A stretch of 64,000 bases of DNA from Candidatus Latescibacterota bacterium (GTDB lineage: Bacteria; Latescibacterota; UBA2968; GCA-2709665). The position numbers and the translations under genes are program-made. The stretch lies in assembly GCA_965237675.1 (NCBI GenBank), contig OZ250150.1:5440001-5504000 (forward strand), written 5' to 3'. Shown one piece after another: positions 38,629 through 62,804 of this stretch. The first letter of the stretch is position 1. Every line of letters begins with the position of its first letter. The notes under the pieces were generated by a model. The model had not been told where the DNA came from and ran no database searches. It worked only from the letters and a program-made list of their open reading frames with translations.

Positions 38629-38697
38629 CCACCCGCCTCCCGAAAGAACACCCAAGTGAACGCCATCGCCCACACAAACGCCGACATCACCAACCTG

Positions 38698-38771
38698 TCT
38701 AGCAGACAGCCAGACCACCGAAGTGAGGGGAGATGGGGACGGCTTTGCCGCGGTCCTTCACGACGCGGTAT
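38698..38771 (-). CRISPR. Displaced partial type I-C repeat plus 37-bp spacer-sized segment
   Basis: 38715-38734 ccaccgaagtgaggggagat is identical to 20 nt of the array repeat, in the same orientation; 38735-38771 separates it from a family-2 repeat. Confidence 0.8.
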
Positions 38772-38808
38772 GAGTCGGTCCTTGTTCTGATGGAAGATTC
38801 TCGACGTG
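38772..38808 (-). repeat. Solitary family-2 CRISPR-like repeat
   Basis: gagtcggtccttgttctgatggaagattctcgacgtg. Confidence 0.85.
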
Positions 38809-38836
38809 TCCGCCTTCGATTGTTCATTTAAGCCTC

Positions 38837-39160
38837 TCATGGGATGCCTGCCGCTGCTCCAAACGCCTCTTGTGCTTCCCGTATCTTGACGTCCAACAAC
38901 GCCTCTTGTATCTCCTCTTGTATGTCCTGCTCCGCTTGCGTAAAGACATCGGCGGACCGCCGCCGGTAAACTTCCGTTCGGAATTCTTGGTTGTCCTCCC
39001 TGATCTTGTCTTGAAAAGCTTCCCGTACCGCCACTTCCATATCCGTCGCTATCGACGGGTTTTCTAGCACGGCATTCTTTACCGCCTGCTTCAGTATTTC
39101 TCGCGGTTCCCCTTTTTGTGCCCCAGCGTCCCACAACACCCGTACCGCCTGCTTCAGCAT
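38837..39160 (-). CDS. Hypothetical helical protein (cassette cargo)
   Basis: 107 aa with internal repeat MLKQAV/ILKQAV; fills the interval between two repeats. Confidence 0.55.
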   Translation of the reverse strand: MLKQAVRVLWDAGAQKGEPREILKQAVKNAVLENPSIATDMEVAVREAFQDKIREDNQEFRTEVYRRRSADVFTQAEQDIQEEIQEALLDVKIREAQEAFGAAAGIP

Positions 39161-39198
39161 TTCTCACCTTGGATTGCTCATTTAAGCCCTCCCAGATG

Positions 39199-39235
39199 GT
39201 TTAAATCCTTGTTCTGATAGAAGATCTTCACCGGG
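39199..39235 (-). repeat. Solitary family-2 CRISPR-like repeat
   Basis: gtttaaatccttgttctgatagaagatcttcaccggg. Confidence 0.88.
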
Positions 39236-39236
39236 A

Positions 39237-39424
39237 TTAGCGGCGGCACCTGGCGGTGCGTTTTTCAGCCGCTCGTTCGGCGTCGGCTTTGGCCCACAGG
39301 GCCAACTGGGACAAGGTAGGAACCGGCAGGCCGCCTTGTAGTCGGCAGGAGCAAACGGCGTCCCGTCGGGATGCCAGCCGCGGCCGAATATCTTCGTGTA
39401 CTTTTCTTTAGGTAGGGTAGGCAT
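39237..39424 (-). pseudogene. Small WHxDGTPFxPADY protein, frameshifted copy
   Basis: Homologous to 47018-47227; 4-nt deletion after KAAC; the restored frame reads LPVPTLSQLALWAKADAERAAEKRTARCRR with TAA 1 nt before the repeat. Confidence 0.7.
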
Positions 39425-39427
39425 AGA

Positions 39428-39464
39428 GATTCAATCCTTGTACTGATGGAAAATTCTCGCCGGG
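39428..39464 (-). repeat. Solitary family-2 CRISPR-like repeat
   Basis: gattcaatccttgtactgatggaaaattctcgccggg; ATG follows 3 nt downstream on the minus strand. Confidence 0.88.
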
Positions 39465-39470
39465 TCTATC

Positions 39471-39560
39471 TCAATCGAACCAATCCCGGGGCGTAAAGTA
39501 TTTGATTCCAATAACCACCACAAGAATGACAGCAAGCAAGAGTATAAATCCCAAAATCAT
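39471..39560 (-). CDS. Small single-TM peptide (cassette cargo)
   Basis: MILGFILLLAVILVVVIGIKYFTPRDWFD; stop 6 nt before the repeat. Confidence 0.45.
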   Translation of the reverse strand: MILGFILLLAVILVVVIGIKYFTPRDWFD

Positions 39561-39569
39561 AGCGGCCCG

Positions 39570-39735
39570 TATCAGCCCGTTGATAAAGTCCATCCGGGCT
39601 GCGTCCGGTCCTTGTGGCCGAAATACTGCGTTGCACTCCCTCTCCGAATCCCCGGATTCGACGCGGTCGCGCGCCTTGTCTTCGGCCACAATGACTCGGC
39701 CTCGCCTGCAGAGCGACTTTTTCAACGGACTGCTA
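39570..39735. mobile_element. MITE-like element with terminal inverted repeats
   Basis: CAGCCCGTTGATAAAGTC ... GACTTTTTCAACGGACTG ends, internal palindromy, partial second copy at 34653. Confidence 0.8.
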
Positions 39736-39749
39736 TATACTTGTTTTCC

Positions 39750-39785
39750 GTTTCAGTCCTTGTTCTGGGGAAGATTCCGAGCGGG
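39750..39785 (-). repeat. Solitary family-2 CRISPR-like repeat
   Basis: gtttcagtccttgttctggggaagattccgagcggg. Confidence 0.85.
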
Positions 39786-39810
39786 ACTGTGGGTTGGGCC
39801 ACGGCCGCTT

Positions 39811-40362
39811 TTATTCATCTCCGCGGATCCTGGCCAGCGCCTCGCTCGCAGCATCTGCCATGAAATCCAGAGAGTCCTTAAGATTCTCGCGTATCCATTC
39901 GAGATACCTGACCGCCCGTTGCTCTCGAAACTCACCGAGTTGCCGGATGATCGTCTCCCCCAGACCGGTGCCCAAAGGGTATCGGTCTCTGGCCATGTGC
40001 TCGAAAACGCTCTCGAGCAGATTCAGCAGGTGTTGGCGAATTTCCTCCGAATCCGGTGAGGGTCTCCAGACGTAACGCGGGTTTTCCCAGGACACCCACT
40101 CGTCGGGTCGACCGGCTTGCACGCGCCGTTCCTGTTCCCAGCCGCCATGGCGCATCACCGGCCCGATCGGGATGCGATCGCGATCGGGCCGGCGATGTGG
40201 ATGGTTCGCACAATAGGTGTAGAAGGGATTCTCTATCGCGATGTCCCTGATCTCGCAATAGGGCGGTATGCTCTTGTCAGCGTGCCGCGACCAGTCGCGC
40301 TCGCCCTGGTTCGTTCGATTGAACCAACAGGTTCCGCAACAGTCGGATCCTCCGTTGGGCAT
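39811..40362 (-). CDS. Hypothetical Cys/His-rich protein
   Basis: GGAGG RBS; MPNGGSDCCGTCWFN..YCEIR..YCANH; HEAT-like tail; ends 25 nt before the repeat. Confidence 0.75.
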   Translation of the reverse strand: MPNGGSDCCGTCWFNRTNQGERDWSRHADKSIPPYCEIRDIAIENPFYTYCANHPHRRPDRDRIPIGPVMRHGGWEQERRVQAGRPDEWVSWENPRYVWRPSPDSEEIRQHLLNLLESVFEHMARDRYPLGTGLGETIIRQLGEFREQRAVRYLEWIRENLKDSLDFMADAASEALARIRGDE

Positions 40363-40699
40363 CGCTCAGCCCTCCTCCCGGTTGAAACTCCGCAACATCT
40401 CCCACAACCCGTCATGTAGTAGCGCTCGCACCGTCACATCGTTCGGTCCAATTGGAATCCTCCGCCAGGCATAACATAAAGTCCATTTGTCGCAAGTATT
40501 GCGACAACATTAAAAAAGCTATCGGCTGTTAGCGTGCAGCCGTCAGCCAGAAACAGTGAGAAAAGGAACCGGTGTGAAGGTGGGGCGGACATTCCTGTCT
40601 GCCCTTATCATTGTCCTTCTGTCGCGATACAGACAGAAGCAAGGCTTGCGCCGTCCTCTTTCCAGTGGGGGAGACGGCGGCGAGTCGCGGCGTGCCCAG

Positions 40700-41260
40700 A
40701 CACAGGATTCTATCGGTCTGTGACGGGATCTCCGACCACGGTGATTACTACCGGGTCGGTACGTGGGAAGTGCTGGACTTCGCAGGCCGAGCACTGGCGT
40801 ACCTGACCGCCGCGCCTGGCAACCGTGGGCTGTCCGCATGCGGAGCAGAAGCCGTTGCGCACATGCCAATGAACGAGCGACCGCGCCTGGGCCAGGATGC
40901 CGGTTTCCCGACCCGCAAGCACGGTCCCGGCGTTGCGGCAATCCTCGAAACGCCAGTCCTGAGCGTCTGCTACCCGGCTGGCTGCCTCGGGGAAGGGAGA
41001 CAGGTCTACGGCGAAGTGCGCGACGCGTCCAATAGGCCGAGGAATATCGGCGCCGCGTCAGGCGTCAGGGTCCGGATACGCTGCGTGTTCAGCCAACCAA
41101 GCCGCGGAGGAAGGCGGTCGTGGATAAACTCCTCCAGGTTTCGGAAGGCCAGAAACCTGCTACCGGCGGCGCGTCCGGCGCGCTCAATCCAGGTTTCATC
41201 CCGACGTTCCCGTTCGCCACGGTCGAGGCGATTGCCGGAGAATGGATATGGAACTCTCAT
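40700..41260 (-). pseudogene. nudC: NADH pyrophosphatase remnant
   Basis: FSGNRLDR..RRDETW in one frame, ARSLVHWH..FCSACG..C..C..HFPRTDPVVI in another; Nudix box absent. Confidence 0.8.
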
Positions 41261-42262
41261 CGTTTGGGGTTACCGAAGGAGGAAAGCGGAAGGGAGGCGA
41301 GGGTCTATCCAGCCCATAGACGGCGCGAGTTCACGTCCAACTCCCGCGGCGCGACCGCTCGAGAACAGCGATGATGCGGCCTATTGTGCCGACGGCTTTT
41401 TCAGGCAACCCAGTGTGCACATCTTTCGGAAATTATGCAAATCCGCACGCAACGCCAACGTGGAACCCGCGGTGGAAGCATGGGCGCGCTATTTCCTGGA
41501 AACTGGACACTTTCCATGAACAAAGGGCAGAAAGCGACGAGGGGAACCCAATGACAAGCGGCCATTGCAGGCAACCGGATTCCATGGAGAGATTCGCCCT
41601 TTAGAGGGTCCGCCAACGGACACGTTGATCGAAATAGCCATTGCAGGATAATTTACAGACATTGTTTTGAAATGGTAGGATCAGGAAACGACCCGCGCAG
41701 ACTATAGATGGGACCAGACCCCCGTCTTGTCACTTGAAATCGCCGAAATGTCTAAGGAAGAAGATCCGTATCGCGCCATAGAGATCTGAGAAATGATGGC
41801 CGAGTCTGCGAGCAGCCGCGTTGAAGATATCGGATACCGGGAAGCCGTCGATTAACTCCGCAAAGTCCGAGACACCTTTAGACATCTCAACGTCGAGGAC
41901 GATTTGAGCGCATCGAGAGTCGGAAACAAAATAAAATCGCGTTGTGTGGAAGTACCCGATGTTCTGGCAGGCAAGCGTTTTATCGATAGTGCATCGGTTA
42001 TGCATGAACGATAGTCGGAATTTTCATTTTGTCCGGGTACCTATCCAATCCGACATGCACGTCACCCTGTCGATCCGAACGTCTGTCAACGAAACGCGGC
42101 AGCAAATGGTTGTGACCGCCAAACCCATTGCCGATGCTGACTTTACTCCAGGTCGGCAATGCCGCGTGCCGGGGCGTAGCAGGATTGCGCCGAGCGCCGT
42201 GTATCTGACTAAGATGGGGGCGAAGTTCCTGTGAGCCCCGGCCATGGCGTACCACTACCTGC

Positions 42263-45100
42263 TCACCTGAACAGCCCCGAGTACTTAAAGGTCATAATGT
42301 AGTCCTGCGAACCCTGCTTCCTGGCCAAGGGTCGATTGTCGTAAATGTCCCATCCCAAACCGAAGAGAAACTGATCCTTGAAAAAAGAAACGGCCACGCC
42401 CAGAGAAATGGCCAGCGATTTTTTGGTTGAAAGGGCTTCGAGGACGTTGCCGATAACGGTCAGATGGATGCCGGAAATCGACGGGTTATCCACGTTGTGC
42501 CAGCCGGCAAAAGCGAGTCCGGGCAGGCCAAGCAGGCGCTCAGTTCTGCCTTGGACCGCTTTGCCATCGGCGTCTGTATAATCGCGCCCAGGGCGAATCG
42601 TCAAAAAGGAAATCAGCGGCTTGGCCTCAAACTCCCACTTCCAGCCCCCGGCTTCCAGAATCTGCGATACGCTCTGAGACTCCGCACCCGGGTGACTTCG
42701 GGTTGTGATTCTGAGTCGCACTCGGCGATTGTCGTCTTCTGACAGCTGCAAATTGAGATCCTCGGCTAAGACCCGCCCGCCGCTCGATTCGTTGATTCTA
42801 ACCTTCAGCTTTCGGTTACTGCTATTGCCTTTGGGGGCGTAGTTTTCGTCAAGCCGCGTCCACTCGACGACCATCTCGCGACCGATTAGCGCCCGCCGCA
42901 GCGAGTCGGGAATCGCAAAGGACACATCCACTTTGGTGCCGTCTTTTTGCACGACGGGGACATTGTTCCAACTAACGGCCAAGGGTTGGGTCTTCTCGCC
43001 GCGGGTGACCCGGACCTCGACAATCTGCGCCAAGTCGATGTCTGCGAGTACCCCGTGCCCCTTGTATTCGAGCGGACGGGCGCGATCCTTGACGTTGTTG
43101 CTGACCAATAAAACGCGCCCTCGGCGATCGCCTAAAGCATCGGGCGCAAAAAAGAGCGTGACGTCCGCTGACTTGCCCGCGGCCAGCGCGAATTGCGCCG
43201 GTGCAACATGGGCTTCGTTGTTTAGGGGATGCGCCTCAACTCGCAGCACGGTATCGCCGACGTTGGTGACCACGAAGGTCCTTTCCGCCTGCTCTCCCAA
43301 GACCGCATAGCCAAAATCAATGATGCCCTCCGGATTCAACTCGATTTCCGCGGCCACGCCGTGGCCCTTGAGCAAGATGTCGAGCGCCAATTTCTCATTC
43401 GCGCCCCAGCCGTCCAAGCGCAAGGTCCCCGAAATCGCTCCACGGGTCGACGGGCTGAAGGTTACGTCTAGCGGCAAGGTGTGCTGGCTGTGGGCCGGCA
43501 GCAAGAACCTACTGTCGGCGTCGATTGAGGTGTGGGCTGTAAACTGGGCGCTCGTCGAGCGAAGCTGGTAAATCTCAAAATCGGCGTTGCCCACATTGGC
43601 TATTTCGACGACTCGGCTGCTGCTTTCGCCGACGGCAACGCGGCCGAAGTCTACGGTTGCCGGGCTGAGGGCAAAAAATCGGCCTACACCCTGCAAGTGC
43701 ACGGTCTGACGCTCGGCTTCGGCCTCGACATGGAGAATGGCTTTGTGAGTACCGGATTCCTTGGGCGAGAAACTCAGCGCCACCTGCGCGCTGGCTCCGG
43801 GCTGAATGAGGACGGAGTGCTGCGCGAGATCAAATTCAACGCCCTCGTCCGCGACTACAGAGACCTGCACCACGCCCGGCCGGCCACCCTTGTTCCACAA
43901 TAGCAAATGGCTGCGCGCGCTCCCGCCGATAGGCACGCTGCCGAAGTCAATGTCGCCATTAATGATCTCGATGCGCGGTGGTCTGATTTGGCCCCGACCC
44001 GCGAGGGGGATGGCGACGTTAGCAGCTTGCGGATCGTTGGTGTACAGGCGCAGGATGCCGCTTTGGTCGCCTTCGCTCTGCGGCACAAACGCTGCGCTCA
44101 GATCAAGTCGTCCCTCGGGAGCAATGGTCGCCGACGAGTCTCCTATTCCAAGGGTAAATGCTGCACCCTCGATGGCGACGTTTTCAACATGCAACTCGGC
44201 TTGGCCCTGATTGAGAACGGTCACGTGGCGCGTTAGGCGCTGACCCATTTCGACGGAGCCAAAATCGAGGCCCACTTGCGGGAGGGGAGAAAAAGCCGCT
44301 TGCGGTACCAAACCGCTCCCCTGCATGGGAATGGACCAATCCCCAAAGTCGGGTGCGGTGACGACGAATTCAGTCGCGACTAGCCCCGCGCCCGTCGGTG
44401 CAAACGCAACGTCTATCCGCGTTTCACCGCCGGGAGCGGGCCAAGGGCCGACATCGCCCTCAACGCTAAAGGGGCCTTGTAGGTCGGCTACTTCCATCTG
44501 CCCAACCGCCACGGGCACGGTTCCAGTATTTCTGAAGATAACAACCGCCATCGCCACTTGCCCGACGGGAACCGCGCCAAAATCCAGCCCCTCGGCTGGC
44601 AAAAGCACCAAGGTCGGAACGACGGCTGCCGCTTGGAGCGGCACGACTAAGCGCTGGTCTATGAACAAGGCGGCTACCTGCAACGTCAGTTCGCCCGAAT
44701 ACTCCCCAGCCGCAGTTGCGCTGAATCTCACTTCGACGCTACTGACGCCCTTGCCGTCCAAGCGCAGCGTATCTGAGAACGCGCGAAAGCCGTCGCCGCT
44801 AATACCGACGATCATCTCAAGCGCGTCGTCTTGCAGATTTTCTATGGAAACGGACGCCCGCGTCTCCACGCCGACGCCGACTACACCCAAGTCAAGCGCA
44901 TCTGGGTCAATGGCGAGGGGTTGCGCGCGCAGAAACACTGGCAGGCACAGGAGGGCGAGCAGAAGAACAAAAGAAAAGCAGACAACCCACCAGAATTTCG
45001 AACTCCATGGTTGTCGGAGATTCACGTCGCAGAGGTGCCGAAGATGACGCCTGACGTATTCTTTGCGCCGATTCATGTGACCCTCGTTTCGTCCATACAT
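42263..45100 (-). CDS. Large surface protein with tandem Ig-like (choice-of-anchor D/ASH-type) domains
   Basis: N-terminal hydrophobic signal; about six (L/I/V)DFG.V..G..N.G..L.G.G units; start uncertain. Confidence 0.85.
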   Translation of the reverse strand: MYGRNEGHMNRRKEYVRRHLRHLCDVNLRQPWSSKFWWVVCFSFVLLLALLCLPVFLRAQPLAIDPDALDLGVVGVGVETRASVSIENLQDDALEMIVGISGDGFRAFSDTLRLDGKGVSSVEVRFSATAAGEYSGELTLQVAALFIDQRLVVPLQAAAVVPTLVLLPAEGLDFGAVPVGQVAMAVVIFRNTGTVPVAVGQMEVADLQGPFSVEGDVGPWPAPGGETRIDVAFAPTGAGLVATEFVVTAPDFGDWSIPMQGSGLVPQAAFSPLPQVGLDFGSVEMGQRLTRHVTVLNQGQAELHVENVAIEGAAFTLGIGDSSATIAPEGRLDLSAAFVPQSEGDQSGILRLYTNDPQAANVAIPLAGRGQIRPPRIEIINGDIDFGSVPIGGSARSHLLLWNKGGRPGVVQVSVVADEGVEFDLAQHSVLIQPGASAQVALSFSPKESGTHKAILHVEAEAERQTVHLQGVGRFFALSPATVDFGRVAVGESSSRVVEIANVGNADFEIYQLRSTSAQFTAHTSIDADSRFLLPAHSQHTLPLDVTFSPSTRGAISGTLRLDGWGANEKLALDILLKGHGVAAEIELNPEGIIDFGYAVLGEQAERTFVVTNVGDTVLRVEAHPLNNEAHVAPAQFALAAGKSADVTLFFAPDALGDRRGRVLLVSNNVKDRARPLEYKGHGVLADIDLAQIVEVRVTRGEKTQPLAVSWNNVPVVQKDGTKVDVSFAIPDSLRRALIGREMVVEWTRLDENYAPKGNSSNRKLKVRINESSGGRVLAEDLNLQLSEDDNRRVRLRITTRSHPGAESQSVSQILEAGGWKWEFEAKPLISFLTIRPGRDYTDADGKAVQGRTERLLGLPGLAFAGWHNVDNPSISGIHLTVIGNVLEALSTKKSLAISLGVAVSFFKDQFLFGLGWDIYDNRPLARKQGSQDYIMTFKYSGLFR

Positions 45101-45339
45101 ACGTTCAAATTACCCACCGTGTATTGTGTAGAAGATCAGTTACAAGGCCCAGACGAGCCGAGGATAGCGGTTCGAACTATGACCAGCCGGTACGTGTTGG
45201 CCAACGAGGACGTCGGCAAACAGCTATTCGGCACGTCGACACACGCCTCCGCGTCGATAAGAATATACAGAGGAAAACGCGGGATTCAATCCCGACCTGG
45301 AATATTCACTGTTGTTGAACCGAATAATAGTTGAATCTA

Positions 45340-46975
45340 GGAGTCTGCGCCGCAGGAAAATTCATTTCAATGGACAGGTAAAGGTAGGTATAATGGGTCG
45401 TGTAGTTCGGAAATGTCAAGCAGTAAAGAGGTTGTGAGTTGTGTCAACGGAGGGAGCTATCGATGCCGACGACCTTTCGTGCGTATCACCCGGACCAGAT
45501 ATTGCTGTTGGCGCCTGATCTTCGGGAGTGGGTGCCTGAAGGGCATCTGTCGCACCAGGTGAGCGATCTGGTGGATTCACTGGATCTGGGGTCGTTCTAC
45601 GCGCCGTATGAAGGCGATGGGCGTCGCAACGCGCCTTATGAGCCATCGATGATGTTGAAGGTATTGATATATGGGTACGCGACGGGTGTGTATTCGTCTC
45701 GTGGGATCGCGCGGAAGCTGGAGGAGGACGTGGCGTTTCGTATGTTGGCGGCAGGCAATTTTCCACAACACCGGACGATCTGCGAGTTTCGTCGTCGTCA
45801 CCTAAAAGATTTCGGGCGTTTGTTCGTGGAGGTGGTTCGTGTGGCGCGGGAGATGGGTCTGGTACGTTTCGGGACGCTATCTTTGGACGGCACGAAGGTA
45901 CGAGCGAAGGCGAGCAAGCGCAAGGCCATGAGTTACGGGCGGATGTTGAAGGAACAGGCTCGTCTGGAGAAAGAGATCGGGGCGTTGCTGGCGGGGGCTG
46001 TGTCGATTGATGCCGAGGAGGACGCGCGTTACGGCGCGGATGTTCGTGGCGACGAGTTACCGGTCGAGTTGCAGCGCAGGCAGGTTCGTCTGGCGGCGAT
46101 CAGGGCGGCTCGGGAGCGTCTAAAAGCATCGCAACGAGCCGTCGACGATGCGCGCGGTCGCAAGCCCGGTCAGAAGTGCAACCCGAAGGGCGGGCGGCCA
46201 TACAAAAGGGCCTATGGCGAGCCCGACCCGAAGGCGCAGAGCAACTTCACGGACCCCCAGTCTCGGATCATGAAGACGAGCGCGGAGGGGTTCCAGCAGT
46301 GCTACAACGCCCAGACGGTGGTGGACGCCGAGCGTCAGATCATCGTGGCTGCGCATCTGGGGTCAGCGGCCACCGATCAGGGCTTTATGCTCCCTTTGCT
46401 GGATGGGGTGCAAGAGACATTCGGGGTCAAGCCGGCGGTGGTTCTGGCGGACGCGGGATACTGCAACGAGGAGGACCTGGCCACGCTTGAGGAACGTGGC
46501 ATCGACGGTCACGTGGCGCTGGGGCGGGAGGGCAGGGAAGGGGTGGACGTCGATTCGGAGACGCTTCCAGCGACGCATCGCATGGGCGAAAAACTGGCGA
46601 GCCCGGAAGGTCGGGGCCTGTATGCGATGCGCAAGTGGCTCTCCGAGGCGCCGAACGGATGGATCAAGGAGATACTGGGCTTCCGGCGCTTCAGCTTCCG
46701 GGGTCTGGAAAAGGTGCGGGGCGAGTGGGACCTGGTCTGCCTGGCGTTGAACGCCAAGCGGATGGCAGCGTTGACGATGTGTTGAGGCATGAGTTCGGGC
46801 GTCCTGTGCTTGTGGACTCGACATACGGGAAGCCACGATCCCTAATATCTCGTCCTCAACACGCCTGACTGCCACGATGCCCCCGCCCGAAACTCATCAT
46901 CCCACTCCCAACATAACACCGAACCCAACACAGACACATCTCGCCCTTTGCAAAAACTCCTGCGGCGCAGACTCC
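45340..46975 (+). mobile_element. IS1182-family insertion sequence
   Basis: Perfect 18-bp inverted repeats GGAGTCTGCGCCGCAGGA (45340-45357 and 46958-46975) around a transposase. Confidence 0.93.
45463..46785 (+). CDS. IS1182-family transposase
   Basis: PSMMLKVLIYGY..SSR.I, LDGTKV.A.AS, NFTDPQSRIMK, LADAGY, GFRRFSFRG. Confidence 0.93.
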   Translation: MPTTFRAYHPDQILLLAPDLREWVPEGHLSHQVSDLVDSLDLGSFYAPYEGDGRRNAPYEPSMMLKVLIYGYATGVYSSRGIARKLEEDVAFRMLAAGNFPQHRTICEFRRRHLKDFGRLFVEVVRVAREMGLVRFGTLSLDGTKVRAKASKRKAMSYGRMLKEQARLEKEIGALLAGAVSIDAEEDARYGADVRGDELPVELQRRQVRLAAIRAARERLKASQRAVDDARGRKPGQKCNPKGGRPYKRAYGEPDPKAQSNFTDPQSRIMKTSAEGFQQCYNAQTVVDAERQIIVAAHLGSAATDQGFMLPLLDGVQETFGVKPAVVLADAGYCNEEDLATLEERGIDGHVALGREGREGVDVDSETLPATHRMGEKLASPEGRGLYAMRKWLSEAPNGWIKEILGFRRFSFRGLEKVRGEWDLVCLALNAKRMAALTMC

Positions 46976-47014
46976 CAGGGCAATATGAGCATTCACTGGG
47001 AACCCTACTTAAGC

Positions 47015-47051
47015 GTTTCAATCCTTGTTCTGGTGGAAGACGTTCGACGAT
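47015..47051 (-). repeat. Solitary family-2 CRISPR-like repeat
   Basis: gtttcaatccttgttctggtggaagacgttcgacgat. Confidence 0.9.
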
Positions 47052-47227
47052 TCGGCCGCACGCTCAGCGTCGGCACGGGCCCACAGGGCCAATTTGGACA
47101 GGGTGGGGACAGGCAGGCAGGCCGCCTTGTAGTCAGCAGGTGAGAACGGCGTGCCGTCCTCGTGCCAGGCGGGGCCGTTAAAAGTGTCTGCCATCTTGTT
47201 GGGTTTGTTGGGCGTGTCGATAGTCAT
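47018..47227 (-). CDS. Small WHxDGTPFxPADY protein ending inside the repeat
   Basis: GGAG RBS; 69 aa; uses the TGA of GATTGAAAC as its stop; homolog at 39237-39424. Confidence 0.7.
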   Translation of the reverse strand: MTIDTPNKPNKMADTFNGPAWHEDGTPFSPADYKAACLPVPTLSKLALWARADAERAAESSNVFHQNKD

Positions 47228-47338
47228 CGTTCAGGTCTCCCATATAGTCCCACCGGATATCCCCAACGTGGTCCCCCGGCAGGTTTTCGCGAAAAGCCTC
47301 AATGGACCGCTCGCCACCCGGCAACTTCTGGGCGTCGG

Positions 47339-47375
47339 GTTTCGATCCTTGTTCTGGTGGATCTACATTTGCGGG
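47339..47375 (-). repeat. Solitary family-2 CRISPR-like repeat
   Basis: gtttcgatccttgttctggtggatctacatttgcggg. Confidence 0.85.
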
Positions 47376-47899
47376 CGCTCAGGACCGCCACCACTGTCCC
47401 GATCTGGACAATAACCGCCTTGCAGCACCGCGACCCGGTCCGCGACCGCCAGGGCGTCGCAGACGTCTCGCGCGGCCCAAATCATCGTGCGGCACCGCAG
47501 TTTTGTACGTCGTGCGAAGAGATCGCGCGGATAAATATAGATTCGTGGTGTCGCAATTACTGCGACAAAAAGCAGCTTTCAGCAATCAGCCGACAGCAGT
47601 CAGCCAATAACGAAAAGGCGATCTATTCACGTCAGCGCATTTGGAGTATCTCCAGGGGCATCCCTTTCGGTTGCCCAAGTCGCGTCGAGTAACAGGCCAC
47701 AGGAGGCAATTGGGGGTTCCGTCGGGAGACCCCGCGGGGCGTCATCGTTTTTGTCGATCAGAGGGCATCAGTCGAGATAAGGAAGCGTCGTGTAACCGTA
47801 CGCCCAAATCGCCAACCGGCGGCGCTCGATGATTTTGGCTCTCTTCTCTCGAACCTCCTCATCGAGTAAATAAACGCAGGCAGACACGGGAACTCTATA

Positions 47900-47936
47900 G
47901 AGTAAATCGTTGTTCTGATGGAAGTTCTCATTGGGC
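47900..47936 (-). repeat. Solitary family-2 CRISPR-like repeat (degenerate)
   Basis: gagtaaatcgttgttctgatggaagttctcattgggc. Confidence 0.75.
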
Positions 47937-51642: not shown

Positions 51643-51646
51643 CGGT

Positions 51647-51683
51647 AAAGTCCTCGTTGTTCTGATGGAAAATTCCCTGTCTA
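51647..51683 (-). repeat. Solitary family-2 CRISPR-like repeat (degenerate 3' end)
   Basis: aaagtcctcgttgttctgatggaaaattccctgtcta; ATG of the Nmad3-like gene follows 4 nt downstream. Confidence 0.72.
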
Positions 51684-53543: not shown

Positions 53544-53580
53544 GTTTCAATCCTTGTTCTGATGGAAGATTCCCGACGGT
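53544..53580 (-). repeat. Solitary family-2 CRISPR-like repeat (best-conserved copy)
   Basis: gtttcaatccttgttctgatggaagattcccgacggt. Confidence 0.9.
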
Positions 53581-53661: not shown

Positions 53662-54744
53662 TCATGCCAGGTTGGCGACGCGGCGTTCGGCGGCGGCGAT
53701 GTCGGCGGCGCCGTCGAGCACGGTGATCTCCAGGTGGAACTCGCGTGTGGCGCCGGGTTCCAGGTACTCCAGGAAGTCGTGCCTGCGGTTCCAGGCGCGC
53801 CCGAGGGGCGAGCAGTTGCCCGGCTCCACGCCGGTCACGTAGCCGGCGGCGGCGAAGTGCTGCCACTGGGTGACCAGCGGCAGCTCGGCAGCCGGCATGC
53901 GCCACTGCAGGCCGTACGCAAGCCGGTCGTTGATCAACGCAACGGTCACGTTGCCGTTGGCGTCCGGTACCGGCCGGTGCACGTAGACGTCGTCGCCGGC
54001 GCCCGGCTCCGGGGCGCGCGCCCGCTCGTACTCCGCGGCATCGACCGGGCGGTCCTGCAGCCACTCGGTGCTGAACTGGCTGTTGACCACGAACCGGGTA
54101 CCCTCGTCGAGCAGCGGGAAGCCGGGATTGGTGTGGTACAGCAGCATCAACGGCGAGCGCAACCCGCCTAGGTTCTCCACTCGGTCGTGGATGCTGATGC
54201 GGCGCTCGCCCAGCGTAGTGGTGATTTCGCGGCGTAGCTCGAGGGTGGTGCCAAGTGCCACCGCTTCGCGCATGGTGCCGGCGATGCGCAGGCGGTATTG
54301 GTCTCCCTGCCAGCTTCCGCCGGCGCTCACGTCGCGCGCCGGGATGGCGGACAGCCGCCCGTGCAGGCCCAGCTCCTCGCCTTCCTCCTCCGGGTCGGTT
54401 TCGGGATGGCCGACGAAGGTCAGGCCGCAACTGATGAGCAGGCCGCCGAAGAAACTGCGCATCCAGCCGTAACCGCCGGGCTCGAAGAATGCCGGGCCGA
54501 CGTCACCGGTGGCGCTGCGGAAACACAGCGACCGCCCCCGGTAGGTGGCGGCAGCGATGTCGAGCGCCCGTCCGGGCAGCACCGAGAAGCTCAGTCCGGA
54601 GGCGTTGCTCACCTCGATCAATCCGGCGCCGCGCTCGTTGCCCTCGGTCAGCTCGGCGCGGCGAACGGCGGCGAGCTGGCTCATATCGCCGACCAACCGC
54701 AGCAGCTCCGCCTTCGTGTAGTCACGTCCAAACAGATGCGCCAT
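53662..54744 (-). CDS. Aldose 1-epimerase-like (DUF4432) protein
   Basis: GDMSQLA, LPGRALDI, FFGGLL.SCGL, LHGR, LYHTNPGFPLL, YVTGVEP; very GC-rich. Confidence 0.85.
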   Translation of the reverse strand: MAHLFGRDYTKAELLRLVGDMSQLAAVRRAELTEGNERGAGLIEVSNASGLSFSVLPGRALDIAAATYRGRSLCFRSATGDVGPAFFEPGGYGWMRSFFGGLLISCGLTFVGHPETDPEEEGEELGLHGRLSAIPARDVSAGGSWQGDQYRLRIAGTMREAVALGTTLELRREITTTLGERRISIHDRVENLGGLRSPLMLLYHTNPGFPLLDEGTRFVVNSQFSTEWLQDRPVDAAEYERARAPEPGAGDDVYVHRPVPDANGNVTVALINDRLAYGLQWRMPAAELPLVTQWQHFAAAGYVTGVEPGNCSPLGRAWNRRHDFLEYLEPGATREFHLEITVLDGAADIAAAERRVANLA

Positions 54745-54856
54745 GCTCGCTCTCTCCTCTCGTGGACGGGCGGCGCCCGGTCAGCGGTCGTGCCAGCGGG
54801 TGTTGCTGCCGGTGCCGCCGGTGAGGCCGATCACCCGCCCCATGATCGCCGCGCCG

Positions 54857-55002
54857 TTACGCCGGGTGCCTCGCCGGGGCAACGTGAGCGCGGCCGATCT
54901 GTCCTACCGAGGTACAGCCGATGAGCGCCATGGTGCGGCTCATCTCCTCGGCCAGCAGGCTTACCGCGTAGTCGACCCCCGCTTCGCCGCCGTTGCCAGA
55001 CT
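54857..55002 (-). pseudogene. C-terminal fragment of an FMN-dependent alpha-hydroxy-acid oxidase, cut at the array repeat
   Basis: GNGGEAGVDYAVSLLAEEMSRTMALIGC begins immediately after ATTGAAAC of the last array repeat. Confidence 0.75.
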
Positions 55003-57672
55003 GTTTCAATCCGCTCCCCCCACCGAAGTGAGGGGAGATGTCATCTCGGGCGCGTGCGCGAAGTCCTTCCACGAGTTTCAATCCGCTCCCCCCACCGAAG
55101 TGAGGGGAGATATTCAGGATGTTTCCGCGTCTATCGTTCCGTCTCCGGTTTCAATCCGCTCCCCCCACCGAAGTGAGGGGAGATATGGACGAAGAAGTCA
55201 TACACTACGACTCCCGGATAGGTTTCAATCCGCTCCCCCCACCGAAGTGAGGGGAGATTTTTATGATGGACTGGATAGACGCCGAAAGAAACAGTTTCAA
55301 TCCGCTCCCCCCACCGAAGTGAGGGGAGATCTGTATCCGTGCGCCTCATCGCCCTCGACCTCTCACAAGTTTCAATCCGCTCCCCCCACCGAAGTGAGGG
55401 GAGATCAGCGCGGGTATGCCTTCCTCGCGCACGACATCCAAAGTTTCAATCCGCTCCCCCCACCGAAGTGAGGGGAGATGAATCTGACGGGTATCGTACC
55501 CGCCGTCCCACTCGAGTTTCAATCCGCTCCCCCCACCGAAGTGAGGGGAGATCCTTCGCGTATGACGAGGGCCTTGATCCTTTCATGAGACAGTTTCAAT
55601 CCGCTCCCCCCACCGAAGTGAGGGGAGATCGCTTGCTCGGTGGCTGAGAGTTGCGATACTTACGTGTTTCAATCCGCTCCCCCCACCGAAGTGAGGGGAG
55701 ATCTCCCAGGCGGCACAATGGCGGTTAGTGGGAACCAGGTTTCAATCCGCTCCCCCCACCGAAGTGAGGGGAGATCGCCGGGCGGCGACCTGTGGGAAGC
55801 GTCGGGGATGGTCGTTTCAATCCGCTCCCCCCACCGAAGTGAGGGGAGATGCCGTGGGCGTTTTCATTCCGGGAAAGGCTGACATGTTTCAATCCGCTCC
55901 CCCCACCGAAGTGAGGGGAGATCAGGGGCCGCTTGCCGGGGTTACCATCAAGGATCCGCGTTTCAATCCGCTCCCCCCACCGAAGTGAGGGGAGATCTCT
56001 GTCGGGCATGGCGAAAAGAACCAACAAAAGCAAGTTTCAATCCGCTCCCCCCACCGAAGTGAGGGGAGATATCCTTATCTCGCGCCGGCACTGTTGGGTA
56101 CGACGAGTTTCAATCCGCTCCCCCCACCGAAGTGAGGGGAGATTTAAACCGGGGCCACAATACAGGAGGGTAAATAATGGTTTCAATCCGCTCCCCCCAC
56201 CGAAGTGAGGGGAGATGTCGGCCGGAATTCTTGCCGAACACGATAGCGCAGTTTCAATCCGCTCCCCCCACCGAAGTGAGGGGAGATTAATGCCTGATTT
56301 TACTGGCGAACAAAAGAAAAAGTTTCAATCCGCTCCCCCCACCGAAGTGAGGGGAGATGGGCGCACAGATCGCCTCTGAGCGTTCCTTTTGTGGTTTCAA
56401 TCCGCTCCCCCCACCGAAGTGAGGGGAGATTCCTGTCTTCATCCGTGAATACATATCCTTCAGGCATGTTTCAATCCGCTCCCCCCACCGAAGTGAGGGG
56501 AGATCTACGATGCGGTATCGGATGTCGGTGCCTGCAATGTTTCAATCCGCTCCCCCCACCGAAGTGAGGGGAGATAGACAGCGGGTGGGCATTGACGACT
56601 GACGCGATAGGTTTCAATCCGCTCCCCCCACCGAAGTGAGGGGAGATTTGTCTGCCGGACGCGGCGCAATGCCGTCGCCATAAGTTTCAATCCGCTCCCC
56701 CCACCGAAGTGAGGGGAGATCCCGAAATGCAAGGGTGGTGGGACAAGTGCACTCAGGACGTTTCAATCCGCTCCCCCCACCGAAGTGAGGGGAGATGCGC
56801 GATGACGCCAAGACAAAAGTCATTCACAATGTTTCAATCCGCTCCCCCCACCGAAGTGAGGGGAGATTCGTAACCGTGCACGAACTGCTCAAAAGCGTCG
56901 ATGGTTTCAATCCGCTCCCCCCACCGAAGTGAGGGGAGATCCACGCCCCGCGCGGGTTCGCGCAACTCGTAGGAATGTTTCAATCCGCTCCCCCCACCGA
57001 AGTGAGGGGAGATTGCCTGTCTCCTCTTGAATCAGTGACGCGCTCAGGTTTCAATCCGCTCCCCCCACCGAAGTGAGGGGAGATTCATTTTCGTGCCTAC
57101 CTGCACAGCGAAAGACACGGTGTTTCAATCCGCTCCCCCCACCGAAGTGAGGGGAGATTCCCCGACCCCTCCCCTCCCACGGCCGTTCCTCCACGTTTCA
57201 ATCCGCTCCCCCCACCGAAGTGAGGGGAGATCAGGTTGCTCGACAAGGCCGTCCCAGGGGCTACGTGTTTCAATCCGCTCCCCCCACCGAAGTGAGGGGA
57301 GATGTGTCGCCTGTGGCCCTGGGGGTTTTGACCCGTACAGGTTTCAATCCGCTCCCCCCACCGAAGTGAGGGGAGATCCGTGGTGTCCTGGGCCTTGCCC
57401 TGGGTCTATACTGGTTTCAATCCGCTCCCCCCACCGAAGTGAGGGGAGATGTGCCGTCGCGGGCGTACGTCACCTCGGAACCAAAGGTTTCAATCCGCTC
57501 CCCCCACCGAAGTGAGGGGAGATCCAGGGGCGTCCGTGGGAGAGGCGGGTGGTGGGTCCGGGTTTCAATCCGCTCCCCCCACCGAAGTGAGGGGAGATGT
57601 ACGTGGTCGCGGCGGCTTACGCCGCGCTGGGTACGGTTTCAATCCGCTCCCCCCACCGAAGTGAGGGGAGAT
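55003..57672 (-). CRISPR. Type I-C CRISPR array, 37 repeats and 36 spacers
   Basis: 37-nt repeat ATCTCCCCTCACTTCGGTGGGGGGAGCGGATTGAAAC (minus strand); spacers of about 34-40 bp; counted by eye. Confidence 0.98.
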
Positions 57673-57852
57673 GCTGGTTGCTACAACCAGCAGAATACCA
57701 AAGGTTTACACAGGCGGATGCGCGATTCCATCGAATCGGTAACAAACAATCCTGAATTCAACATCGATGAGCCCTCCAACCTGTTATTAAACAAAAGGTT
57801 TCGCAACCCGCGAAACCCCAGGCAAAATTCCGTCACTCTACGTTCGCGCAAC
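57673..57852 (-). promoter_or_regulatory. CRISPR leader
   Basis: Lower-GC noncoding segment between cas2 and the first repeat. Confidence 0.75.
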
Positions 57853-58176: not shown

Positions 58177-59238
58177 TCATTTGGGTATGTACGGGATATA
58201 GTCGGGAATATCGCCACGGAGCTTTCGCGCCAGCAACCTGGCTTGAATGCTGAACACCTGCCCTAAACGGATATTTTCCTTGAACAGCGCGTGCTTTACC
58301 TCGGTTTGCTTCCGGCGTTGCCAGGCCTGGATAACCTCTTTCCTGCCCCGGTCGGTAAACTCCACTGCGCCGCCTTCGCGCTCGAGGAAGTGTCCAGGTT
58401 CAATCTGGCGACGATTGATCAGGGTCAATGCCAGCCGCTCAGCCAAACAGGGTCGGAACTCTTCCATCAGATCCAGCGCACAAGCCGGCCTACCAGCCCT
58501 TGTGGCATGGAGCCAGCCGACGTACGGGTCCAGCCCAGCGGTCGTCAACGCGGCCAAACAGTCGTGCCGCACCAGTGCGTAGATGAAGGAAAGCAGGCAG
58601 TTTACCCGGTCACGGGGCGGACGCCGCGAGCGCGTAATAAATCTGAAGTCTTCCCGCTGTTGTTTAAGCATGTACTGGAAGGCCGAGAAATATTTCCTGG
58701 CGCCCAGACCTTCCATACCCCTGATCGGATCGAGTGCCTCCCGAAGCCCGCAATTCGTTGCAACGGGTGGAGCATTGCCGAGTTGATCGATCAGCCGGGC
58801 TAATTCATCTGCGGCACCCACCAACTCCCTGCGGTCCGAATCCGTCTCGGCTTCGCGGCCGGACCGCAATAGATTGGAACGCGAATTCTGCAGCTTTCCG
58901 GCGACGAACTGCCGGGCAATGCGAGCAGCAACCTCCGGGCTGTCCGCCGCCGCGTATTGAGCCCGGCGGAGCAGATACCGGGTGTCTCCGCTTCCCAGAA
59001 CCTGCGCCAGCAGATGTCCGTTCTCGGTATGGTAATGGACGGCAACCTGATGCTGCCAGCACAGGGACATTGCAGGTGGCGTAACCACGACCCGACCGAA
59101 CGCGCAGATACTTTCCAGGTGATGAATCGGCACGGTCAATCGTGTTTGTTTTTCGATTTCGACCCGGAGCGTCAAATGATCCCTGTGGACAACAGTGCCC
59201 GGAGTCGTCAGATACAGGGTGTTCTGGATGATAGCCAT
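58177..59238 (-). CDS. cas1: CRISPR-associated Cas1 (type I-C)
   Basis: NTLYLTT, RGMEG.GA..YF, RSRRPPRD.VN.LLSF.Y, GLDPY.G.LH, ALDLMEEFR. Confidence 0.97.
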   Translation of the reverse strand: MAIIQNTLYLTTPGTVVHRDHLTLRVEIEKQTRLTVPIHHLESICAFGRVVVTPPAMSLCWQHQVAVHYHTENGHLLAQVLGSGDTRYLLRRAQYAAADSPEVAARIARQFVAGKLQNSRSNLLRSGREAETDSDRRELVGAADELARLIDQLGNAPPVATNCGLREALDPIRGMEGLGARKYFSAFQYMLKQQREDFRFITRSRRPPRDRVNCLLSFIYALVRHDCLAALTTAGLDPYVGWLHATRAGRPACALDLMEEFRPCLAERLALTLINRRQIEPGHFLEREGGAVEFTDRGRKEVIQAWQRRKQTEVKHALFKENIRLGQVFSIQARLLARKLRGDIPDYIPYIPK

Positions 59239-59281
59239 AACAGGTCCGTAAGCCAGGTTTGGCCTGTGGAACCAGGCAAAT

Positions 59282-59983
59282 TTAGTCTGAGGTGTCGAAC
59301 ACCTCCCGGCCGGCTTGAAGAAGGATGGGCGGAGCGCTGGTTATTTCGGGAAGGCAGTAATGAAAAAGCGAGCACTCCGAACATTGTGGCTTATGGACGG
59401 CTTGGGGGACCACTTCCTCTTCGATAAGCCGATGCACGGCTTCGATGGCGTGTTCTGTGAGTCGGCGCAGATCGCCGTCAAACTCAACTTCTCGCCGGCG
59501 CCTGCTCGTGGCGTGGTAGATAGCCCCTCGGGGAATCTCCAATTCGAACATTTCTTCGAGGCACAACGCTTGTGCGCAAAGCTGGGCGTCATCGTTGTCG
59601 AACTTGCGGCGTTTGCCCTTCTTATATTCAACTGGATAGACGCTTTCGACATTATCCGGCAAATATCGGGTTTTTTTTCGCTTAGAAGAACGTTTGAGTT
59701 TCACCTCAACAATATCGCATTTTCCAGAGAGCCCCAGCCTTTGGGACCATACCGGCAATGCCCGAAGCACTTCTGTATGTGCCGCCTTCTCGTACCCTGG
59801 TACATCGGCCTGCTCGTGAAATTGACTGCCGATTAGCGTGTGCTCGTTTTCGGTGAAAGTACCCTCGACATGGATCAAGCCCGCCCGCCGAGGGCAATAG
59901 AGGTACTGGTTGATAGCGGAGAGCGGAATGATCCGCTCTCCGCTATCGTACGGGTGGATCGGCTGGAAAACGGATTCATTCAT
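59282..59983 (-). CDS. cas4: CRISPR-associated Cas4
   Basis: YCPR, G..DIVE, PVEYKKG, QLCAQALCLEEM, C..CSL..C. Confidence 0.96.
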   Translation of the reverse strand: MNESVFQPIHPYDSGERIIPLSAINQYLYCPRRAGLIHVEGTFTENEHTLIGSQFHEQADVPGYEKAAHTEVLRALPVWSQRLGLSGKCDIVEVKLKRSSKRKKTRYLPDNVESVYPVEYKKGKRRKFDNDDAQLCAQALCLEEMFELEIPRGAIYHATSRRRREVEFDGDLRRLTEHAIEAVHRLIEEEVVPQAVHKPQCSECSLFHYCLPEITSAPPILLQAGREVFDTSD

Positions 59984-60929
59984 GACGCCTATTTAAGCAA
60001 ATGCCGGCGGGCAGATCGACACTGTCCCATCCGCAGCCAACCTCATAATCGGCGAAGGATTGCGGGAATTCCACGCTGTCCTTCAGTTTTACCTCTATTC
60101 CCTCAAAAAGCTTGTGGGCATGGGCACAGCCGAGGCGGGCTTCGCGTTTTTTTTGTTCGGCATTATTTTCATGTTGGGTGCCAACGTGCTCAAAGTCGTA
60201 AATCCCTCGCACCACCATTTCACCGCGAGCAGCGGAGCGGTCATGCTCGAACATCTGGTTGAGCGCATCGAAGAGGACATCGAGGTCGGCGTTAGTGAAC
60301 CCGGTGCGTTCGGCAAAAGCAGGCGAGACGTAAACCTTGGCGGCGAAGAGGGCATAGGGTACGATGTGCTTATTGCCCATGGTGCGTTCCTTGTCTGCGT
60401 CCTCCTCTTTTGTGACGGCACCGCGAGTAATGGAGATCTCCAGTGGCGTGATAGGATGGTACGACTGGCCAAAGGTGAACTGCACCGGACCGCGCACCTG
60501 ACCCCAAGCGGAGCCTTTCATGATGCTTTCCCCTACGCCGAGTACACCGCCGAACGCACGCACATCAAAGAACTCACGGCACAGCCATTTCATGGCAGCT
60601 TCTTGCTTCTCGTTCTTGGAAGCACCCGAGTCCAAACTCTCGGCACTTTTCTCAACGCCATTGTCGATCTCGTTATTGATTATGGCACCCTGCCTTATCA
60701 ACAGATTATAGCCGTTGGCATCATCTTCAGCCCGTTCGGGCGAGAACATTTCAACGAAGTTGCGCACCTTACGCTTGAGGCACACGTCGGAGACGAGACC
60801 CCGATTGGTGTTGTGATCTTGACGCGGCATGTTACCAGCATCGGGATCGCCATTGGGATTTCCGTTGGTGACCTCGAAGAGCAGCAAAACGTCGTGCCGA
60901 TTGGTGAGAATATCGTTGTTTCGATTCAT
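59976..60929 (-). CDS. cas7: Cas7c (Csd2)
   Basis: NGNPNGDPDAGNMPR, DVCLKRKVRN, FFDVRAFG, GPVQ, MFEHDRSAARG. Confidence 0.96.
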   Translation of the reverse strand: MNRNNDILTNRHDVLLLFEVTNGNPNGDPDAGNMPRQDHNTNRGLVSDVCLKRKVRNFVEMFSPERAEDDANGYNLLIRQGAIINNEIDNGVEKSAESLDSGASKNEKQEAAMKWLCREFFDVRAFGGVLGVGESIMKGSAWGQVRGPVQFTFGQSYHPITPLEISITRGAVTKEEDADKERTMGNKHIVPYALFAAKVYVSPAFAERTGFTNADLDVLFDALNQMFEHDRSAARGEMVVRGIYDFEHVGTQHENNAEQKKREARLGCAHAHKLFEGIEVKLKDSVEFPQSFADYEVGCGWDSVDLPAGICLNRRHE

Positions 60930-60954
60930 TGATGAATTCCTTTCTGTGAAAGAT

Positions 60955-62802: not shown

Positions 62803-62804
62803 TA

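Follow-up and report, generated by a model that had tools for sequence, protein, structure and literature searches.

We analysed a 64,000-nucleotide (nt) stretch of the genome of a Candidatus Latescibacterota bacterium (GenBank assembly GCA_965237675.1, contig OZ250150.1, positions 5,440,001 to 5,504,000), referred to below as the window; the 5.6-Mb genome that holds it is labelled G000, and its relatives carry labels of the same kind (G006–G019 and others). Between 38.7 and 53.6 kb, the window contains eight CRISPR repeats and one degenerate candidate, all of which lie on the minus strand, in the array's orientation, and have genes between them. Two of the intervals enclose diverged copies of a small gene, termed WH here, whose product has several tens of amino acids (aa). 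The repeats and the two copies, the second of which is an intact open reading frame (ORF), are as follows:

38772..38808, minus strand: orphan repeat R1; its 3' end is degenerate, as in a terminal repeat, with 4 mismatches in the 24-nt core
39199..39235, minus strand: orphan repeat R2
39237..39424, minus strand: WH copy 1, a pseudogene that has lost 4 nt of a CTGCCTGCC run; its ATG follows R3 after 3 nt, and its TAA precedes R2 by 1 nt
39428..39464, minus strand: orphan repeat R3, with AAGGA 10 nt before the ATG of copy 1
39750..39786, minus strand: orphan repeat R4
47015..47051, minus strand: orphan repeat R5, which gives copy 2 its last 10 codons and its TGA stop
47018..47227, minus strand: WH copy 2, an intact 69-aa ORF with GGGAG 9 nt before its ATG; the start lies 111 nt after R6
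47339..47375, minus strand: orphan repeat R6
47900..47936, minus strand: orphan repeat R7, with a degenerate 3' end
51647..51683, minus strand: possible degenerate repeat just upstream of an Nmad3 gene; the 5' two-thirds match and the 3' end does not
53544..53580, minus strand: orphan repeat R9, with a perfect 24-nt core, downstream of a DUF4432 gene

The sequences ending in ATTGAAAC are full-length 37-nt CRISPR repeats with the minus-strand consensus CCCGGTGAGAATC-TTCCATCAGAACAAGGATTGAAAC. Their core TCCTTGTTCTG occurs nine times in the window with at most one mismatch and always in one orientation (0.77 expected; maximum of 4 in 100 shuffles), and the 18-mer CAGAACAAGGATTGAAAC occurs six times with at most 3 mismatches, against 0.07 expected. 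When the 24-mer was searched across G000 with up to 3 mismatches, all five genome-wide matches fell within the window region. Two of the repeats gave matches to the Rfam family CRISPR-DR7 (30.2 bits at R6 and 26.5 bits at R5), both below the gathering score of 37. The start-to-start spacings of the orphan repeats are 427, 229, 322, 7265, 324, 561 and 5644 nt, and regular spacing with unique inserts of spacer size (~30-45 nt) was not found among them; the window copies are orphan repeats and form no array in the usual sense.

A regular array and a set of cas genes lie farther along the window:

55003..57674, minus strand: regular type I-C CRISPR array with a 37-nt repeat that ends in GGATTGAAAC, period 73
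58177..63602, minus strand: type I-C cas genes (cas5d 62805-63602, cas8c 60955-62808, cas7 59976-61331, cas4 59282-59983, cas1 58177-59238)

This single cas operon of the window is of type I-C and has a repeat unlike the orphan repeats, with which it has only the GGATTGAAAC end in common. Neither Cas6b (sought with the Cas6b_C profile) nor a regular array of the orphan-type repeat was found in G000, and for this reason we regard the copies in this genome as orphans. The situation in the relatives is different. The 24-mer was sought in 53 genomes of the order and was present in 28 of them, G000 included. In G008, G010, G014 and G019, relatives of the same genus, it forms regular arrays of 30-83 perfectly uniform copies with a period of ~74. 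The array of G014 adjoins cas6b-cas8b-cas7-cas5-cas3-cas1-cas4, which is a type I-B set, while that of G019 adjoins a WYL regulator, cas5, a large unnamed gene, cas7, cas3, cas4 and cas1, a type I system without Cas6. Since the same sequence builds regular arrays beside cas genes in these relatives, the orphan repeats are genuine type I CRISPR repeats. Their 3' 24 nt are identical across species and their 5' 13 nt are species-specific. It appears that in G000 the cognate array and its cas genes were replaced by the type I-C system with its other repeat, and that only a relic remains, in which eight orphan repeats and one degenerate candidate alternate with cassettes.

The segments 39236-39427 and 47052-47338 are exact inter-repeat stretches, R3/R2 and R6/R5, of 192 and 287 nt. 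A reading of the sequence alone (the sequence-only reading) had described them as holding diverged coding homologs (WHxDGTPFxPADYKAACLPVPTL), and the substitution pattern bears this out: the 37 aligned codons show differences at 15.0 of the 27.8 synonymous and 7.0 of the 83.2 non-synonymous sites (proportions pS 0.54 and pN 0.08). What it had said of the gene ends is also correct. After repair of the 4-nt deletion, which was probably caused by a 4-nt slippage, copy 1 fills its segment from the ATG 3 nt after one repeat to the TAA 1 nt before the next. In copy 2 the match holds to ...DAERAAE, after which the 69-aa ORF enters R5 (tail SSNVFHQNKD) and stops at the TGA of GGATTGAAAC. Copy 1 is dead, whereas copy 2, though its original 3' end has been lost to the repeat, is intact and has a predicted ribosome-binding site of its own, GGGAG. 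G019 has copy 1 as well, frameshift included, in a stretch that shares 95-98% identity with window 38320-40711; copy 2 groups with a G017 copy and the metagenome cluster P0035, and the 111-nt gap after the repeat is common to them. Because each lineage has an orthologue in another species, the two copies are old paralogues and not the product of a recent duplication; the possibility, raised at the outset, that both result from one segmental duplication does not hold for a recent event.

The WH family consists of proteins of ~58-67 aa with the core W-H-x-D-G-T-P...D-Y-x-x-A-G-x-P-V-P-T. A profile built from eleven copies (A1) matched 13 of the 15 genomes of the genus, among them G000, with 1-6 matches in each, and one of the two sister-genus genomes; among the 31 genomes from the other family there was a single weak match, with a stop codon inside. 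The gene is under purifying selection (median dN/dS, the ratio of non-synonymous to synonymous substitution rates, of 0.39 in 138 pairs). Forty WH clusters were present among 5.8 billion clustered proteins, every one of them unnamed or annotated as 'hypothetical', and a search of 1.84 billion representatives at E<=0.001 returned 85 profile matches, about half of which (~forty) are small full-length family proteins. Large proteins matched in several stretches were rejected as repeat-protein look-alikes, in which only the W-x-x-D-G-T-P motif was matched, repeatedly. A metagenome scan added two true loci, both with the same repeat, and a third match proved to be a spurious match to a sensor protein. 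Several database members bear tails translated from the repeat (FHQNKD, SSIRTRIET). Two longer proteins, P0180 and P0182 (451 and 464 aa), contain one WH module, preceded by an N-terminal domain without a name (~290 aa, with a Cys cluster) and followed by a C-terminus resembling a helix-turn-helix domain (HTH_73 / AbiEi_4, both weak matches). Judged by its sequences, the WH family is real and under selection.

The WH protein had no Pfam match at E<=0.1 and none in PADLOC. In an AlphaFold (AF2) model, with a mean pLDDT (predicted local distance difference test score) of 72.9, a beta bridge is accompanied by one short and one long helix; a Foldseek search of this model against the PDB returned nothing at E<=0.001, the ESM Atlas gave no usable hit, and the PDB sequences contained no match to the fused form P0180. 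One might guess that WH is a small binding or regulatory factor of the surrounding defence and DNA-repair island.

The tie between the gene and these repeats, proposed from the window, holds in the relatives as well: for 27 of 29 WH profile hits, a repeat lies no farther than ~110 nt away on one side or both, and 19 hits start no more than 8 nt after one. The junctions were surveyed at 21 loci in 15 genomes, which provided 84 repeats that are not followed by a regular spacer and 147 regular repeats. An ATG lies at offset 3-5 after 30 of the former and 11 of the latter, and a WH gene opens at offset 2-5 after 23 of the former and after none of the latter. The 5' junction of WH thus measures 2-5 nt in 23 copies, with 111 nt in two more, whereas the 3' junction is variable, the next repeat beginning at any point between 22 nt upstream and 89 nt downstream of where the profile match ends; the stop codon typically lies 1-30 nt before the next repeat or inside it. 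Every locus has a single repeat orientation, with the cassettes on the trailer side, directly after the array in G019. In G009, five WH copies of three lineages follow each other in one run with periods of 219-246 nt. The arrangement first noticed in the window is confirmed by these data and is wider than first described.

We compared the conservation of the genes with that of the repeats. For the repeats upstream of 19 intact genes (171 pairs), the p-distance was 0.17 over the 3' 24 nt and 0.35 over the 5' 13 nt, and the WH genes of the same pairs gave a pS of 0.67 and a pN of 0.29; the 82 pairs in which a cognate array is missing from both genomes gave the same figures for both repeat and gene. 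Conservation is even over the 37 nt and drops sharply to background at both edges. Because only 2-5 nt separate the repeat from the ATG, the ribosome-binding site would have to be in the repeat. AAGGA is the probable site, and pairing between it and the 3' end of the 16S rRNA (CACCTCCTTTCT / CCTCCTTT) is possible. The upkeep of the repeat in genomes without cas genes may be due either to gene conversion among cassettes or to a role that does not depend on Cas proteins.

WH is one of several kinds of cargo. The collected loci contain 65 inter-repeat stretches longer than 100 nt (in 20 loci), with inserts from 121 nt to several kb. They encode, besides WH, a hydrophobic peptide of 30-41 aa, unnamed small proteins, Nmad3, NUDIX, Exo_endo_phos, UDG-like and SRAP proteins, a methyltransferase, GmrSD (PADLOC HEC-05), housekeeping-type genes and transposases, and the ends of the non-WH cassettes are arbitrary. 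One such cassette lies in the window:

53662..55002, minus strand: DUF4432 cassette; directly behind the last type I-C repeat it opens with the 3' part of a gene for an FMN-dependent dehydrogenase, and the DUF4432 gene spans 53662-54744

The dehydrogenase fragment (FMN_dh, window 54745-55002) comprises the last ~38 codons of the gene (Pfam positions 312-349 of 350, E 2.5e-8). The cassette follows the last type I-C repeat in G000 and a repeat of the other type in G019 and G017 (L075 5560-5950; L074 18990-19330), which indicates that CRISPR modules have been exchanged at this spot. In G019, a duplication of ~1 kb, made up of the end of the WH gene, a repeat and the start of the DUF4432 cassette, brackets the array of 83 repeats.

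The interpretation that we favour, with about an even chance of being right, is one old capture of a phage-type gene, which repeat recombination multiplied and to which the repeat supplies a ribosome-binding site. A small gene of phage type would have been taken up once, as a gene-sized spacer, into a type I array of the ancestor; unequal recombination between the flanking repeats would then have multiplied it into several paralogue lineages, and these would have spread over the genus. The cassettes would be read on the strand of the array or operon, the repeat serving as 5' untranslated region and its AAGGA, 10-12 nt before the ATG, as ribosome-binding site. In type I-B and I-C systems of other organisms, the cut that processes CRISPR RNA (crRNA) gives a handle of 8 or 11 nt. 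In genomes with Cas6b or Cas5, a cut of this kind would hit AAGGA or lie next to it, and processing would compete with translation.

One ancestral junction followed by duplication is indicated because the 2-5 nt gap has stayed constant over saturated synonymous divergence while the 3' junction varies. The sequence-only reading had taken the different end points of the two window copies as a sign of independent capture events; this is opposed by the 23 copies in 15 genomes that share the gap despite saturated synonymous sites, and the differences at the 3' end suggest small shifts, of the kind that later insertions and deletions give. Outside the genus, the homologs are free-standing genes with no CRISPR repeats flanking them. 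One of them, in a metagenome-assembled genome (MAG) of Binatia, is placed between a prophage's genes for head morphogenesis and scaffold (PHROG matches), on the opposite strand and with no flanking repeat, and another, in a Chloroflexota MAG, has a C-terminal extension of ~90 residues. The earlier suggestion that the gene derives from a mobile element is plausible in view of the single distant homolog in the prophage head module; its alternative, that WH is a dedicated component of the CRISPR system, is doubtful, as intact copies occur in three genomes without Cas1, Cas5 and Cas6b. No WH relative was found in 2.9 million viral contigs (IMG/VR), and the 197 unique spacers from the arrays of G000, G008, G010, G014 and G019 had no match to non-array sequence of the collected loci. 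We also considered de novo birth of the gene from decayed internal repeats, an idea prompted by the period of ~220-246 nt, which is near three array units. It was rejected: alignments of the 37-nt repeat with 21 WH genes scored as shuffled controls did (~12), with the exception of three WH genes that read into the downstream repeat.

Several observations weigh against the single old capture or against parts of it. The WH tree is unrooted, is built on 63 columns and has many open forks, so that one capture rests mainly on the shared junction. Non-WH cassettes that start or end in gene fragments flush with a repeat fit integrase-type capture equally well. A role of AAGGA in translation fits the conservation of AAGGA itself, not the even conservation of the whole 24-nt core. 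The genomes G006, G013 and G015, which have none of Cas1, Cas5 and Cas6b, keep the repeats and intact WH genes, from which it follows that Cas-dependent processing is not required. The structure and profile searches gave no functional lead for WH. Five metatranscriptome runs contain small shares of the stretch, and contigs from three studies cover parts of 38.3-40.9 kb, one of them spanning R3; this material consists of assembled contigs (four runs), which cannot show strand, ends or processing and in which uncovered parts do not mean silence, and part of its depth is due to an inserted multi-copy element. All that these contigs establish is the presence of parts of 38.3-40.9 kb in RNA libraries. 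A promoter scan of 38200-40700 yielded no sigma-70-like candidate.

In an extension of the sequence-only reading, capture may instead have been active and repeated, Cas1-Cas2(-Cas4) integrating long DNA of 190 bp to several kb with duplication of the repeat, which would make each cassette an independent oversized spacer. The inserts are indeed flush with full repeats on both sides, their contents are diverse, and the arbitrary end points of the non-WH cassettes cut genes, as where the FMN_dh fragment directly follows a repeat. Random capture would not, however, yield a 2-5 nt gap between repeat and ATG common to all WH lineages; moreover, the cassettes lie at the trailer side, not the leader side, and persist in cas-less genomes. 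Neither a source locus nor evidence of a protospacer-adjacent motif was found, and long inserts made by Cas1-Cas2 were not found described in the literature searched. We consider this origin unlikely. Similarly improbable, in our view, is the boldest interpretation, in which the CRISPR array acts as an integron-like platform: gene-sized DNA would be inserted flush by Cas1-Cas2 or by repeat recombination and transcribed with the precursor of crRNA, each repeat being both a ribosome-binding site and a cleavage site of Cas6b or Cas5, so that the state of the CRISPR machinery decides whether the cargo is translated, and the repeats would still be selected after the loss of cas genes. WH would be the most successful passenger on such a platform, next to the small hydrophobic peptide and the defence and DNA-repair genes.

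An anti-CRISPR origin is likewise of low probability. WH would be a phage protein resembling an anti-CRISPR (Acr) that travels with a solitary repeat unit, the latter acting as a decoy in the manner of an RNA anti-CRISPR (racr); phage or plasmid copies would have recombined into host arrays through the shared repeat and would persist as selfish or domesticated inhibitors. The protein is small, belongs to no known family and has several diverged paralogues, its distant homolog occupies a moron-like position in the prophage head module, and cas genes have been lost from many genomes of the genus. For viruses, clusters of acr genes and candidate racr repeat units are reported (PMC10651486). This prophage homolog lacks a flanking repeat, however, and the viral contigs searched contain no relative. 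The loci are chromosomal and syntenic across the genus, with no location in a virus, plasmid or prophage among them; intact WH genes stand alongside long arrays of perfectly uniform repeats in G014 and G019, and purifying selection goes on in genomes that have no CRISPR-Cas to inhibit.

Alternatively, the region could be functionless debris, a decaying array in a recombination hot spot where CRISPR-cas modules were replaced repeatedly, where the repeats are alike through gene conversion only and where WH is a bystander. Module replacement in G000, which has a type I-C system with another repeat where its relatives have the other array, is in keeping with this, as are the pseudogenes, insertion sequence (IS) and MITE (miniature inverted-repeat transposable element) of the region, the degenerate terminal repeats and the duplication around the array of G019. 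We nevertheless regard it as quite unlikely: the repeats are better conserved than both the synonymous and the non-synonymous sites of WH, also in genomes without an array as a donor for conversion, the 5' junction has stayed the same although divergence is saturated, and WH makes up 23 of the 84 cassette starts, far above what is expected of a bystander. Highly improbable, finally, is a safeguard or addiction module, a translation-level analogue of CreTA in which a harmful WH is kept untranslated by Cas6b or Cas5 cleavage and by Cascade loading on the handle beside the ATG until Cas loss or inhibition frees it: the ATG does lie 2-5 nt from the repeat end, the predicted processing cut would part AAGGA from the ORF, and CreTA modules are described as built of degenerate CRISPR repeats in type I systems (PMC8501985; PMC10120712), but G006, G013 and G015 keep intact WH genes and well-kept repeats without Cas1, Cas5 and Cas6b, Cas6b is missing from ten further genomes of the genus (among them G000, G009, G011, G012, G016-G019 and the WH-less G007), WH homologs elsewhere are free-standing, and WH has no toxin-like feature in Pfam, PADLOC or the structure model.

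The nearest described elements are the orphan or degenerate arrays, stand-alone repeats and mini-arrays near cas loci, in which type I-B is among the rich types (Shmakov et al. 2023, PMC10120712). As described there, they resemble our repeats in being diverged repeats of the resident type that lie outside the regular array, near a CRISPR-cas locus and in array orientation. Mini-arrays, by the same description, have a spacer-sized non-coding insert with a partial promoter match, whereas the inserts here are 121 nt to several kb long and protein-coding; one gene family recurs here in spacer position throughout the genus, and the passages of PMC10120712 consulted mention no protein genes between repeats. 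CreTA, in which Cascade represses a toxin and the antitoxin resembles crRNA (Cheng et al. 2021, PMC8501985), likewise brings together degenerate flanking repeats of a type I system and a small gene that Cas proteins may control in its expression. CreA is reported to be a short guide through which a separate RNA toxin is repressed at transcription, whereas in our loci the spacer itself is a conserved protein gene, intact copies of which remain in cas-less genomes. Solitary repeat units, or RNA anti-CRISPRs, are found clustered with viral acr genes (Camara-Wilpert et al. 2023, PMC10651486) and share with WH a CRISPR repeat directly beside a small unknown protein gene and a possible phage link; unlike them, WH copies are chromosomal and syntenic, with repeats on both sides and multiple tandem paralogues, and no relative was found in the viral contigs searched. 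In Clostridioides difficile, type I toxin-antitoxin modules are reported to adjoin type I-B arrays (PMC5961336). Those modules too are small genes at the ends of type I-B arrays, and a neighbouring cassette in our window encodes a hydrophobic peptide of 30-41 aa, but they reportedly lie beside the arrays, not between repeats, and WH is not hydrophobic.

In a CreTA-type mini-array, two degenerate repeats enclose a guide of spacer size that has a seed match and a protospacer-adjacent motif at a promoter. The WH inserts do not have this form: they measure 192 or 287 nt and contain a conserved ORF (no target search with their first 35 nt was made). Integron cassettes are small genes that face one way, mostly lack a promoter, have a conserved repeat at their boundaries (the attC palindrome) and can be shuffled. 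The WH cassettes resemble them in orientation, in the mostly absent promoters, in the conserved repeat around each gene and in being open to shuffling, and differ in that the boundary is a CRISPR repeat instead of an attC palindrome and that some boundaries cut genes; inspection by eye detected no GTTRRRY/RYYYAAC core sites of integrons, and no search for IntI was made. Engineered Cas6/Csy4 processing sites serve as insulators between genes in synthetic operons. There, too, a CRISPR repeat stands between coding sequences of one transcript, but those operons are laboratory designs, which would have a natural counterpart here only if the boldest interpretation, that of the array as a platform, were right. 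In the literature searched by full text, we did not find protein genes in spacer position described. The arrangement is real and unusual, and akin to orphan or mini CRISPR arrays.

CRISPR arrays are thought to hold only spacer-sized non-coding memory. Here, a conserved protein gene family under selection occupies the spacer position and has multiplied there, and the repeats on its flanks are better preserved than the gene itself, also where cas genes are missing. This hints at a capacity of CRISPR arrays to store whole genes, to multiply them and perhaps to express them. If true, genes would have recruited CRISPR repeats as their boundaries, as sites of recombination and as signals for translation, engineered operons with Cas6 sites would have a counterpart in nature, and there would be a case for asking whether adaptation or repeat recombination loads whole genes into arrays. 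Array finders and gene callers will both mis-annotate such loci, and database members with repeat-translated tails already exist.

The remaining features of the region are:

38837..39160, minus strand: 107-aa ORF filling the R2-R1 cassette; its sole Pfam match is weak (E 0.057), below the cut-off
39468..39593, minus strand: ORF of the small hydrophobic peptide (30-41 aa) in the R4-R3 cassette; its longer start lies within the inserted repeat element
39573..39741, minus strand: MITE-like hairpin element of 163-169 nt, inserted in the R4-R3 cassette
39811..40362, minus strand: gene of a 183-aa Cys-rich protein, the upstream neighbour of a WH cassette in at least nine genomes
40474..40553, minus strand: palindrome TTGTCGCAAGTATTGCGACAA with a hairpin, operator/promoter-like, upstream of the 183-aa gene; copies at 37253-37323 and 47535-47610
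45340..46981, plus strand: IS element with a DDE transposase (45439-46785) and inverted ends GGAGTCTGCGCCGCAGGA, just downstream of R5

The hairpin element at 39573-39741 has a folding energy of -86 kcal/mol (z -7.3) and gave 55 BLAST matches in G000, ~30 of them full-length at 87-97% identity; it has no Rfam match. It occurs at very high depth and with varied flanks in the metatranscriptome contigs, and one RNA contig from a relative has the R4-R3 cassette without the insertion. The 183-aa protein has an N-terminal Cys-rich motif and no Pfam or PADLOC match; its family comprises at least 1402 clusters, with 55-90% identity among the 120 listed. Each of the three TTGTCGCAAGTATTGCGACAA-type modules consists of a near-perfect palindrome after a terminator-like hairpin. 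They precede the 183-aa gene, an ABC-ATPase-like pseudogene and a truncated pseudogene copy that ends at R6, and the module looks like a shared operator/promoter. A tblastn search for continuity across R6 with a relative's ABC-like ORF gave nothing useful, that ORF resembling a pseudogene remnant.

The transposase of the IS element has 448 aa (DDE_Tnp_1, DUF772). The element lies between R5 and a gene for a 945-aa Ig-domain protein and is well represented in the RNA-library contigs. Defence-type genes stand among the orphan repeats of the window at 48175-49995 and 50728-51924 and encode GmrSD (PADLOC HEC-05, E 1e-223) and Nmad3. In G008, a pair of genes for proteins of 687 and 1071 aa (PADLOC ZacB and ZacC) follows the WH cassette (L085 6702-11977); in G016, ORFs of 687 and 1078 aa, which are like the G008 pair by length alone, follow the last degenerate repeat. 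Downstream of R1, a 21-nt unit is repeated 2.5 times, in frame, within a 112-aa ORF (window 38470-38522), and an RNA-library contig from a relative is one such unit shorter at this position.

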